DNA from: Escherichia coli
GTDB taxonomy: Bacteria > Pseudomonadota > Gammaproteobacteria > Enterobacterales > Enterobacteriaceae
NCBI RefSeq assembly: GCF_024502345.1
Contig: NZ_JALDNN010000001.1
Length of the DNA: 64,000 nucleotides
Strand: one strand, 5' to 3'
Shown: positions 4,168 to 9,026 of the stretch, in pieces
How positions within the stretch are numbered: the first letter of the stretch is position 1
Layout: every line of letters begins with the position of its first letter
Notes under the pieces: generated by a model
Told to the model about the DNA's origin: nothing
Databases searched by the model: none
The model's input: the letters and a program-made list of their open reading frames with translations, nothing else
Translations under genes and position numbers: made by a program

Positions 4168-6135
4168 ATGGGTATTTTCTCCATTGCTAACCAACATATT
4201 CGCTTTGCGGTAAAACTGGCGACCGCCATTGTACTGGCGCTGTTTGTTGGCTTTCACTTCCAGCTGGAAACGCCACGCTGGGCGGTACTGACAGCGGCGA
4301 TTGTTGCCGCCGGTCCGGCCTTTGCTGCGGGAGGTGAACCGTATTCTGGCGCTATTCGCTATCGTGGCTTTTTGCGCATCATCGGCACATTTATTGGCTG
4401 TATTGCCGGACTGGTGATCATCATTGCGATGATCCGCGCACCATTATTGATGATTCTGGTGTGCTGTATCTGGGCTGGTTTTTGTACCTGGATATCCTCG
4501 CTGGTACGAATAGAAAACTCGTACGCGTGGGGGCTGGCCGGTTATACCGCGCTGATCATTGTGATCACCATTCAGCCGGAACCATTGCTTACGCCGCAGT
4601 TTGCCGTCGAACGTTGTAGCGAGATCGTTATCGGTATTGTGTGTGCGATTATGGCGGATTTGCTCTTTTCTCCGCGATCGATCAAACAAGAAGTGGCTCG
4701 AGAGCTGGAAAGTTTGCTGGTCGCGCAATATCAATTAATGCAACTCTGTATCAAGCATGGCGATGGTGAAGTTGTCGATAAAGCCTGGGGCGACCTGGTG
4801 CGACGCACCACGGCGCTACAAGGCATGCGCAGCAACCTGAATATGGAATCTTCCCGCTGGGCGCGGGCCAATCGACGTTTAAAAGCGATCAATACGCTAT
4901 CGCTGACGCTGATTACCCAATCCTGCGAAACTTATCTTATTCAGAATACGCGCCCGGAATTGATCACTGATACTTTCCGCGAATTTTTTGACACGCCGGT
5001 AGAAACCGCGCAGGACGTCCACAAGCAGCTCAAACGCCTGCGGAGAGTTATCGCCTGGACCGGGGAACGGGAAACGCCTGTCACCATTTATAGCTGGGTC
5101 GCGGCGGCAACGCGTTATCAGCTTCTCAAGCGCGGCGTTATCAGTAACACAAAAATCAACGCCACCGAAGAAGAGATCCTGCAAGGCGAACCGGAAGTAA
5201 AAGTAGAGTCAGCCGAACGTCATCATGCAATGGTTAACTTCTGGCGAACCACACTTTCCTGCATTCTGGGCACGCTTTTCTGGCTGTGGACGGGCTGGAC
5301 TTCCGGCAGTGGTGCAATGGTGATGATTGCGGTCGTGACGTCACTGGCAATGCGTTTGCCGAATCCACGCATGGTGGCGATCGACTTCATCTATGGGACG
5401 CTGGCCGCGCTGCCGTTAGGGCTGCTCTACTTTTTGGTGATTATCCCTAATACCCAACAGAGCATGTTGCTGCTGTGTATTAGCCTGGCAGTGCTGGGAT
5501 TCTTCCTCGGTATAGAAGTACAGAAACGGCGACTGGGCTCGATGGGGGCACTGGCCAGCACCATAAATATTATCGTGCTGGATAACCCGATGACTTTCCA
5601 TTTCAGTCAGTTTCTCGACAGCGCATTAGGGCAAATCGTCGGCTGTGTGCTCGCGTTCACCGTTATTTTGCTGGTGCGGGATAAATCGCGCGACAGGACC
5701 GGACGTGTACTGCTTAATCAGTTTGTTTCTGCCGCTGTTTCCGCGATGACTACCAATGTGGCACGTCGTAAAGAGAACCACCTCCCGGCACTTTATCAGC
5801 AGCTGTTTTTGCTGATGAATAAGTTCCCAGGGGATTTGCCGAAATTTCGCCTGGCGCTGACGATGATTATCGCGCACCAGCGCCTGCGTGATGCGCCGAT
5901 CCCGGTTAACGAGGATTTATCGGCGTTTCACCGACAAATGCGCCGCACAGCAGACCATGTGATATCTGCCCGTAGCGATGATAAACGTCGTCGGTACTTT
6001 GGCCAGTTGCTGGAAGAACTGGAAATCTACCAGGAAAAGCTACGCATCTGGCAAGCGCCACCGCAGGTGACGGAACCGGTTCATCGGCTGGCGGGGATGC
6101 TCCATAAGTATCAACATGCGTTGACCGATAGTTAG
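4168..6135 (+). CDS. aaeB: p-hydroxybenzoic acid efflux pump, inner membrane subunit
   Basis: ORF track 655 aa, polytopic membrane protein, directly downstream of aaeA. Confidence 0.93.
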
Positions 6136-6138
6136 GTC

Positions 6139-6168
6139 AAAACCGACGCCAAAAGTGTCGGTTTTTTC
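6139..6168 (+). terminator. Rho-independent terminator after aaeB
   Basis: Stem accgac/gtcggt followed by T6. Confidence 0.6.
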
Positions 6169-6226
6169 ATGGCTATACTTAGCGATGCACGGCAGAACTC
6201 GCCGCGAAACGTGACGGTGGCAACAG

Positions 6227-6499
6227 ATGAATATTTATACCTTTGATTTTGATGAGATTGAGAGTCAGGAGGATTTTTATCGTGACTTTAGCCAAACCTT
6301 TGGTCTGGCGAAAGATAAGGTACGCGATCTCGACTCACTATGGGATGTGTTAATGAACGATGTCCTGCCGCTACCACTTGAGATTGAATTTGTTCATCTG
6401 GGAGAGAAAACGCGTCGCCGTTTTGGCGCGTTAATATTGCTGTTTGATGAGGCAGAGGAAGAGCTGGAAGGGCATTTGCGTTTTAATGTTCGTCATTAG
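6227..6499 (+). CDS. yhcO: barstar-like ribonuclease inhibitor YhcO
   Basis: ORF track 90 aa, [21 protein letters not shown]...; barstar-like fold protein at this locus in E. coli. Confidence 0.85.
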
Positions 6500-6500
6500 C

Positions 6501-6529
6501 GCAAAAAAAAGCCCCCGAACCGGGGGCAA
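6501..6529 (-). terminator. Rho-independent terminator of yhcN (hairpin shared with the yhcO 3' end)
   Basis: gcccccgaaccgggggc hairpin at 6511..6527 with an A8 run on the plus strand, giving U8 after the hairpin on the minus strand. Confidence 0.7.
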
Positions 6530-6554
6530 TATCGTCGGACAAGACGATGAGGGT

Positions 6555-6818
6555 TTATTTGTACAGTTCAGCCGTAGCGTGCCAGGTGTCACCGCTACGA
6601 GCTTCAGTAATCTGGTAGGCCGTTGCGCCTTTCTCTTCCGCTTTTTTGTTCAGCATTTCACGCATATCCATTGGCGAAGACGCCACACCACTTACGGATA
6701 CGGTCCCGATTGCTTCACGATTTTGTGCTTGTGCAGCATCAATGGAGTCGGCAGCGAATGCACCGAAAGAGAGAACAGAAAGTACGCTTAATGCAGCAAC
6801 AGTGGTTTTGATTTTCAT
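6555..6818 (-). CDS. yhcN: DUF1471 periplasmic stress-induced protein YhcN
   Basis: 87 aa with signal peptide MKIKTTVAALSVLSVLSFGAFA; ATG at 6818 with a GAGG Shine-Dalgarno, preferred to the longer track ORF. Confidence 0.85.
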   Translation of the reverse strand: MKIKTTVAALSVLSVLSFGAFAADSIDAAQAQNREAIGTVSVSGVASSPMDMREMLNKKAEEKGATAYQITEARSGDTWHATAELYK

Positions 6819-7182
6819 GATTTTTACCTCGACATAATCTTTTAGCTGGGCCTTTGTTTCGTGACCCATATCACAAAATCAAGTATACACTAATTATTGA
6901 GCTAATTAATACCGCGCTAACTGTTTCAGTTGATACTAAGTGTTAAAAATGTGAATTTTAATAACAAAAAAGTATTAAAAACACGGTTATTTATTATAAA
7001 TACCAGTTTTTTCAATCAGATAATGAATTTTGCATAATGTGCTTTTTTTACCGTATGTATTCACTATGTGAATGATATGTCGCGGTAAAACGCACTATTC
7101 GTTAAATGAATCGCAGGGGAAAGCAGGGGATTGAGAGGGATAAGCAACATTTTCCCCGCCGCCAGAAGCGACGGGGCAGAGA

Positions 7183-7656
<474 letters not shown>

Positions 7657-7675
7657 TCACCCGATATGGTGGTTG

Positions 7676-7715
7676 ATACAACATTATTGTGCATACAGAT
7701 GAATTTTTATGCAAA
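7676..7715. promoter_or_regulatory. candidate ARG box pair (ArgR autoregulation operator)
   Basis: ATGAATTTTTATGCA resembles the ARG box consensus TNTGAATWWWWATTCANW, about 45-60 bp upstream of the argR ATG. Confidence 0.45.
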
Positions 7716-8012
7716 CAGTCAGCCCTGAAGAAGGCTGAAATAATGTTATGAAAGAGCGGGATTTTATCAAATTTCGTTATTGAGAAACATGCCTGCGTCA
7801 CGGCATGCAAATTCTGCTTAAAAGTAAATTAATTGTTATCAAATTGATGTTGTTTTGGCTGAACGGTAGGGTATATTGTCACCACCTGTTGGAATGTTGC
7901 GCTAATGCATAAGCGACTGTTAATTACGTAAGTTAGGTTCCTGATTACGGCAATTAAATGCATAAACGCTAAACTTGCGTGACTACACATTCTTGAGATG
8001 TGGTCATTGTAA

Positions 8013-9026
<1,014 letters not shown>

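Follow-up and report, generated by a model that had tools for sequence, protein, structure and literature searches.

The barstar-family gene yhcO of Escherichia coli as the predicted surviving half of an RNase-barstar operon

The described systems closest to the gene treated here are the barstar gene of Bacillus amyloliquefaciens, which encodes the inhibitor of the ribonuclease (RNase) barnase (PDB 1BRS, 1A19), and the immunity genes of polymorphic toxins, among whose listed families is Imm-Barstar (Zhang et al. 2012, PMC3482391). The gene itself is yhcO, which lies in a stretch of 64,000 nucleotides from Escherichia coli (RefSeq assembly GCF_024502345.1, contig NZ_JALDNN010000001.1; the whole stretch is referred to below as the window). 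An earlier note on the window, made from its letters, had read the product as a 90-amino-acid (aa) barstar-fold protein, and this is borne out by the open reading frame (ORF), by the Pfam family PF01337 and by crystal structure 2CX6:

6227-6499, plus strand: yhcO coding sequence (CDS), 90 aa and a TAG stop codon, barstar family according to the ORF list, Pfam, PDB and annotation.

The gene, its fold and its family are known from public databases, as is, implicitly, its orphan status. The product of 6227-6499 is 100% identical to the protein of structure 2CX6 (named "hypothetical protein yhcO" in an entry entitled "ribonuclease inhibitor Barstar"), the Salmonella ortholog (PDB 5F4C) is 77% identical to YhcO, and RefSeq labels the gene "yhcO: barstar family protein". 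YhcO matches the Pfam family PF01337 (Barstar) over residues 1-81 with 37.6 bits (cut-off 23.4, E 2.1e-9), and fold searches recovered the barstar alpha/beta fold of three parallel strands and four helices; since barstar itself is a row of our alignment A1, the PDB profile search with that alignment was partly circular, and the family call leans on Pfam and the fold searches. NCBIfam, PADLOC and PHROGs returned no family for YhcO or for the Serratia barstar and RNase described below, and thus no link to known defence systems or phages. Similarly, tblastn searches of plasmid and phage collections with YhcO matched only chromosomal pieces that had been filed as plasmids or phages.

Compared with B. 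amyloliquefaciens barstar, YhcO is only ~20% identical, the barstar residues Y29, G31, T42 and W44 are not conserved in it, and, unlike that protein, it is encoded without a cognate RNase in the genome, as a stress gene with a putative promoter of the sigma-S type. Like the orphan immunity genes of polymorphic toxins (contact-dependent inhibition (CDI), Rhs and type VI secretion system (T6SS) toxins; PMC3482391), yhcO lacks a toxin in its own genome and has cognates in other bacteria. Unlike them, it does not sit in an array of toxin/immunity cassettes, its neighbours aaeB, yhcN and argR being housekeeping or stress genes, and it is not strain-variable. The yhcO locus is present with the same neighbours in 5425 of 5426 complete E. 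coli genomes, yhcO is a single-copy core gene of the species, and it is found in all sampled species of Enterobacteriaceae and Erwiniaceae. Its origin is a simple secreted-RNase pair and not a delivered polymorphic toxin. The earlier note had called yhcO an orphan immunity-type gene, which fits insofar as it is a toxin-less homolog of immunity genes but misses that it is a constrained core gene with, putatively, its own promoter, unlike the genes of polymorphic-toxin arrays.

RNase-barstar pairs at the orthologous locus

Among 1.84 billion representative proteins, full-length relatives of YhcO were found at 30-48% identity, and the first ones looked up are encoded directly downstream of a PF00545 (barnase-family) ribonuclease gene. 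A genome scan with a 10-sequence alignment (A2), taking one genome per species and followed by tblastn, gave 80 Enterobacterales loci. Throughout the 24 Serratia and Yersinia loci, including that of Y. pestis, an RNase gene lies 0-10 nt upstream of the yhcO counterpart and downstream of aaeR-aaeXAB. The encoded RNases belong to PF00545 and are 149-157 aa long. Their N-terminus is hydrophobic and resembles a signal peptide, and their identity to barnase is 54-62%; retained in them are the counterparts of barnase K27, R59, E73, R83, R87 and H102, residues whose functional roles are established in the barnase literature. The gene order in Xenorhabdus is yhdP, a CN-hydrolase gene, tldD, RNase and barstar, the same chromosomal neighbourhood as in E. 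coli, and the arrangement tldD-RNase-barstar-darP-pmbA is found there as well as in two further loci (L090 and L091). Yersiniaceae, Morganellaceae and others hence encode a yhcO ortholog beside a PF00545 RNase.

The RNase gene is missing and yhcO is intact in all 55 Enterobacteriaceae and Erwiniaceae loci of the scan, and likewise in the window. These solo loci come from Escherichia, Citrobacter, Enterobacter, Lelliottia, Buttiauxella and other Enterobacteriaceae and from the Erwiniaceae Pantoea, Erwinia and Izhakiella, with family assignments checked. The gap between yhcO and the gene upstream is only ~50 nt in the 55 loci, which leaves no room for an RNase remnant. The suggestion of the earlier note that orphan immunity genes such as yhcO can mark ancient toxin loci is thereby upheld, with the RNase gene upstream in 24 Serratia and Yersinia species, Xenorhabdus, L090 and L091 and absent from the 55 solo loci.

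The barstars of the Serratia, Yersinia (Y. pestis YPO3690-type) and Xenorhabdus operons are YhcO orthologs by synteny and by tree, YhcO being 51-57% identical to those of Serratia and Yersinia and 44% identical to that of Xenorhabdus. Common to both are the tldD/aaeR-aaeXAB neighbourhood and the invariant motifs LLF(D/E)EAEEELEG and LDxLWDV. The operon barstars carry the signature FGxNLDALWDVVTG, follow a secreted PF00545 RNase gene and have darP-pmbA on their right flank, whereas E. coli yhcO carries the signature x(V/I)x(D/N)LDSLWDV, has lost the RNase gene, would have its own promoter and is flanked on the right by yhcN-argR. The flanks were compared in L001, L063 and L084: darP (yjgA) and pmbA follow the barstar gene in Xenorhabdus, Serratia, Yersinia, L090 and L091, which brings the tldD and pmbA paralogs close together, and the E. 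coli-type right flank (window 6500-9026) has yhcN-argR-mdh in their place. It follows that the 3' end of yhcO coincides with a rearrangement breakpoint, which falls on the branch where the RNase was deleted.

A neighbour-joining tree places all solo YhcO sequences in one monophyletic clade in 199 of 200 replicates, and in 167 of 200 this clade groups with those barstars of Yersiniaceae and Xenorhabdus that are syntenic and paired with an RNase. The simplest history suggested by these sequences is one RNase deletion on the stem of Enterobacteriaceae and Erwiniaceae. The solo orthologs have kept intact ORFs of 88-94 aa in 56 of 56 cases. The median pairwise Nei-Gojobori ratio of nonsynonymous to synonymous substitution rates (dN/dS) of yhcO is 0.14 in the solo set (235 pairs) vs 0.08 in the paired set (139 pairs), and the same two species sets give 0.085 vs 0.049 for the neighbouring aaeA and 0.062 vs 0.033 for aaeR. 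Since an offset of ~1.8-fold is common to the three genes, it is a property of the species sets and not a relaxation specific to yhcO; relaxed selection on solo yhcO, considered from its higher dN/dS, was rejected for this reason. The comparison of loci and alignments shows yhcO to be the half that remains of an ancestral RNase-barstar operon and to be held under purifying selection.

Many Erwiniaceae have a second pair of barnase-family RNase and barstar genes at another locus, convergent with srfB/srfC (SrfB, Virul_Fac):

L086 and L087, 6001-6757: Erwiniaceae-type srf-locus RNase-barstar pair
L088, 6001-6729: Erwiniaceae-type srf-locus RNase-barstar pair
L094, 4001-4802: Erwiniaceae-type srf-locus RNase-barstar pair
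L093, 3145-3874: Erwiniaceae-type srf-locus RNase-barstar pair

This pair belongs to close relatives of E. coli, but its locus and its barstar lineage are different: the srf-locus barstar has only 35% identity to YhcO and branches apart from the YhcO lineage in the tree. It coexists with solo yhcO, and in Pantoea sp. BAV 3049 the two are on one contig. Proteus mirabilis likewise has adjacent RNase (~501.9-502.2 kb) and barstar (502.2-502.5 kb) genes, the barstar being 36% identical to YhcO; the P. mirabilis records H13/H14 and H53/H54 (~4.08 Mb) of the plasmid collection are mislabelled chromosomes. Two other records touch the family. A 241-bp scaffold of Corynebacterium lipophiloflavum DSM 44291 (L042) matches the first 58 codons of E. 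coli yhcO at 100% identity and is almost certainly E. coli contamination of that assembly. A 255-aa protein from a 1489-bp metagenome contig (P0214) has a barstar domain at its C-terminal residues 176-248, preceded by 170 N-terminal residues without a Pfam match, and may be a fusion or a mis-called gene.

The binding surface and the search for an RNase in E. coli

The residues by which YhcO would contact an RNase are encoded in two short parts of yhcO:

6326-6346, plus strand: codons D34-L-D36-S-L-W39-D40, helix alpha-2 with the DxxxD motif, equivalents of barstar D35, W38 and D39
6446-6472, plus strand: codons D74-E75-A-E-E-E79-L-E-G82, acidic start of helix alpha-4, equivalents of barstar E76 and E80

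The DxxxD motif of the binding helix is taken as defined in PMC3482391, and YhcO has it together with the acidic RNase-contact residues of the barstar family. In a site-by-site alignment all 56 solo and all 24 RNase-paired sequences have D36, W39, D40, E75 and E79 without change, and E77 is also invariant in both clades. The acidic interface residues of barstar are reportedly needed for binding and costly to stability (Schreiber, Buckle and Fersht are said to have found this in 1994). That such destabilising hot-spot residues stay invariant argues for a retained binding function.

The earlier note had seen no barnase-type RNase within 5 kb on either side of yhcO. This agrees with tblastn searches of the whole 64-kb window with barnase, RNase Sa and RNase T1, whose best match had an E of 0.3. 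The genome-wide search that it had proposed was run at the DNA level: in blastn sensitive mode neither the Serratia RNase gene nor the Erwinia RNase-barstar pair had a match in 5,426 complete E. coli genomes, a search that a homolog under ~65% nucleotide identity would escape. As a control, the DNA of the adjacent Serratia barstar gene found yhcO in 4985 E. coli genomes. Within the DNA-level searches a cognate barnase-family RNase is thus missing from E. coli, nearby or elsewhere in the genome, and present in the Serratia, Yersinia and Xenorhabdus loci, and a PF00545 domain is not known from the K-12 proteome. Two protein searches, each taken to its best 120 RNase relatives, gave a single Enterobacteriaceae label, "K. 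pneumoniae", for a protein (P0373) on a 5.3-kb contig. It was rejected as an Enterobacteriaceae RNase and is probably contamination, because the contig has the gene order of the Erwinia srf locus.

Neighbourhood and transcription signals of yhcO

The gene order in the window is tldD, aaeR, aaeX, aaeA, aaeB, yhcO, yhcN, argR, mdh, degS and degQ. ORFs and Pfam bear out the neighbours given in the earlier note, namely the efflux gene aaeB, whose product (FUSC family) stops at 6135, and the convergent DUF1471 gene yhcN. That note had ended the locus at 6869, which is as far as the longest possible yhcN ORF extends; the annotated gene is shorter. The following features surround yhcO:

6140-6167, plus strand: terminator-like hairpin 3' of aaeB, AAACCGACGC-caaaa-GTGTCGGTTT then a T-run, read from the sequence (a simple hairpin scan did not list it)
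6173-6182, plus strand: sigma-S-type -10 element CTATACTTAG (C at -13, TATACT hexamer), putative yhcO promoter
6216-6220, plus strand: Shine-Dalgarno-like GGTGG, 6 nt ahead of the yhcO ATG
6503-6527, minus strand: yhcN intrinsic terminator, a G+C hairpin (6527-6511) then T8 (6510-6503) on the minus strand
6530-6549, plus strand: second hairpin, 7 pairs (3 G-C), then AGGGTTTATTT on the plus strand, weak candidate terminator of yhcO
6555-6818, minus strand: yhcN (DUF1471 / YdgH-BhsA-like stress protein; PF07338), 87 aa, annotated, convergent with yhcO

Upstream, all Escherichia loci and Pseudocitrobacter keep the hairpin at 6140-6167 in front of the gene, where it would insulate yhcO from aaeB transcription. 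The element CTATACTTAG likewise precedes yhcO in Escherichia and Pseudocitrobacter, is identical in Escherichia loci L006-L011 and in L035, and fits the sigma-S -10 consensus, which would make it part of a yhcO promoter. Its presence at 6173-6182 agrees with the RpoS-dependence of yhcO, which is among the 100 most RpoS-dependent genes with a wild-type/rpoS ratio of 214 (PMC2907692). The gene is also induced by an acid shift (PMC2270276), and its mRNA rises with over-expression of LldR (PMC10272880). The two LldR-box candidates of the latter paper lie inside the yhcO CDS, at 6298-6314 and 6363-6379, and not upstream of it, and each matches 8 of 14 consensus positions.

Downstream, the earlier note had proposed that yhcO and yhcN share one terminator hairpin at 6511-6527. 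The hairpin is exactly as given (GCCCCCGGTTCGGGGGC, with 7 G-C pairs and a 3-nt loop). Its plus-strand context is A8 before and AATATCG after, so that T8 follows on the minus strand only, which makes it the terminator of yhcN; a bidirectional terminator would have an A-tract, a hairpin and a T-tract, and here there is no U-run for yhcO. The hairpin is accordingly shared only loosely, as the U-tract serves yhcN only and a second hairpin lies at 6530-6549. Weak as it looks from its base pairs, this second hairpin is the more plausible stop for yhcO transcripts, and together with GGGTTTATTT it may serve yhcO. The 71-nt yhcO-yhcN intergenic region folds better than its shuffles (z -3.1 on the plus and -2.7 on the minus strand), and an Rfam search of 5800-7400 gave sub-threshold chance matches only.

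The interval around yhcO varies among genera. In most Enterobacterales an aldehyde dehydrogenase gene (PF00171, ~484-508 aa) stands between aaeB and yhcO or the RNase gene (for example L012 5428-6954, L045 5493-6947 and L084 4818-6316). It is absent in Escherichia (window 6136-6226), Pseudocitrobacter and Serratia; the Y. pestis copy, broken into two overlapping ORFs, is probably a pseudogene. In genomes that have the gene, yhcO begins ~50 nt past its stop codon, behind a G+C hairpin, and this spacing suggests that the two genes may be co-transcribed where they adjoin. E. coli has a single DUF1471 (yhcN-family) gene convergent with yhcO (window 6555-6818), and other genera have two or three tandem paralogs (L012 7342-7978; L045 7355-8463). 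In E. albertii (L008 6212-7000) an insert of ~790 bp separates aaeB from yhcO and contains a repeated unit translating as "...PDALRLSGLQGNCIILN..."; it looks like a cluster of repeats of the repetitive extragenic palindrome/bacterial interspersed mosaic element (REP/BIME) type.

Possible targets of YhcO and its place in the core genome

The explanation that we propose begins with a two-gene operon in the tldD/aae neighbourhood of early Enterobacterales, which encoded a secreted barnase-family RNase and a cytoplasmic barstar. The RNase gene was deleted once, on the stem of Enterobacteriaceae and Erwiniaceae, and the barstar gene kept, as synteny, the tree and the selection statistics show. YhcO would still be a tight-binding protein inhibitor, in which helix alpha-2 (D36, W39, D40) and the acidic start of helix alpha-4 (E75, E79) would plug the basic active-site cleft of barnase/N1-T1-type guanyl RNases, a block that may be steric and electrostatic as in barstar. 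Because no such enzyme was found in the E. coli genomes searched, the targets would be foreign RNases, secreted by or delivered from neighbours, e.g., Serratia, Yersinia, Hafnia, Proteus, Erwinia or Bacillus. Transcription of yhcO in Escherichia would start at a sigma-S-type promoter of its own during stationary phase and acid stress, when the envelope is most permeable. We lean slightly towards this explanation as a whole, i.e., that YhcO is the surviving inhibitor of a lost RNase pair and still acts on foreign barnase-type RNases; that YhcO still plugs barnase-type RNases, now foreign ones, and is expressed under stress seems to us, by analogy with barstar, evenly poised.

Several observations weigh against such a role. 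Positions F31, G32, A33, N34 and T43 (barstar Y30, G31, E32, N33 and T42) are invariant in the paired barstars and variable or replaced in the solo clade, in which P48 is newly invariant and one residue is inserted. The changed periphery of the interface indicates that the binding surface has been remodelled and not abandoned, and such a surface may bind barnase less tightly or have another partner. An AlphaFold2 model of YhcO fused through (GGGGS)x6 to the mature Serratia RNase, made with a paired alignment and without a cognate-pair control, had a predicted local distance difference test (pLDDT) score of ~90 in both domains, a predicted template modelling (pTM) score of 0.54 and no confident docking. 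The absence of an RNase from E. coli is a DNA-level result, with the reach given above. A tblastn search with the RNase against 72,556 plasmids matched only Bacillus, Clostridium and the mislabelled Proteus chromosomes, and one against 50,697 phage records had no match, so that no route for a foreign barnase-type RNase into the E. coli cytoplasm was found by the plasmid and phage searches. It is established that barnase is toxic in E. coli without barstar, as Hartley is said to have found in 1988, which means that chromosomal yhcO at its native level does not protect growing cells. Lastly, a literature search on yhcO/b3239 and barstar returned transcriptome lists and in-silico annotation only, and no biochemical data on YhcO; a 2023 paper still gives its function as unknown (PMC10272880).

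The remodelled periphery, with the five positions freed, P48 fixed and one insertion, also speaks for a co-option of YhcO after the loss of the RNase to an endogenous basic partner, which could be a nuclease, an RNA-binding protein or a RelE/YoeB-type toxin of the barnase-like BECR fold. YhcO would then be a stationary-phase regulator and not an immunity protein, a reading that we regard as possible, though doubtful. In its favour are a constraint undiminished relative to the neighbouring genes although the RNase in cis is gone, the place of yhcO in the RpoS, acid and LldR regulons, the co-regulation of the Salmonella ortholog with a virulence regulon, and the Erwiniaceae, in which solo yhcO persists beside another barstar dedicated to their own RNase; Zhang et al. 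2012 (PMC3482391) also pair Imm-Barstar with a second BECR toxin family, Ntox21. Against it, the invariant residues are exactly those that barstar uses against barnase, PADLOC, PHROGs and NCBIfam offered no alternative family, and no partner or interaction data were found in the literature. Another reading is that the partner is a barnase-type RNase or toxin domain encoded elsewhere in E. coli (e.g., at the C-terminus of an Rhs or CdiA protein, or in an accessory island), so that yhcO would not truly be an orphan. The Pantoea contig with an unlinked RNase and solo yhcO offers a precedent, and the E. coli search is blind below ~65% nucleotide identity; yet two divergent enterobacterial RNase genes had no match in the 5,426 complete genomes while the barstar control worked, no Enterobacteriaceae plasmid matched, the single Enterobacteriaceae label among the best 120 relatives in each search is a probable contaminant, and a strain-variable toxin would not account for a core gene. 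We therefore consider an unlinked RNase very unlikely. Least credible of all is that yhcO is a decaying, functionless relic, kept by chance or by overlapping signals such as the yhcN terminator. No phenotype or activity has been reported and the partner gene is gone, but an undamaged ORF is found in all 56 species and in practically every E. coli genome, a dN/dS of 0.14 is not raised above that of the neighbours once the offset between the species sets is considered, the functional residues are invariant, and transcription is strong and RpoS-dependent. The selection data effectively refute the relic reading.

What is left to explain is a solo barstar fixed in the core genome of two families since before their split, under undiminished constraint. 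As a tentative interpretation, it could provide innate broad-spectrum immunity against barnase-type RNases of competitors, or be a repurposed, sigma-S-controlled inhibitor of an endogenous barnase-fold nuclease or toxin. The finding, correct as far as the comparisons go, is a modest one on a known gene; in a searchable library that is incomplete, we found no paper on the synteny with Yersinia and Serratia RNases or on the undiminished constraint of yhcO. The gene is among the remaining y-genes of E. coli with a solved structure and without a known function, and its descent from a barnase-barstar operon that is still whole in Yersinia pestis, Serratia and Xenorhabdus turns a vague annotation into testable questions. 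If YhcO neutralises the RNases of neighbours, it would be a clear natural case of an immunity gene that has outlived its toxin and joined the general stress response; otherwise its invariant acidic surface suggests an endogenous partner. Should either the immunity or the repurposed-inhibitor reading be true, YhcO would be the first immunity-type protein shown to have been converted into a universal housekeeping factor of a stress regulon.

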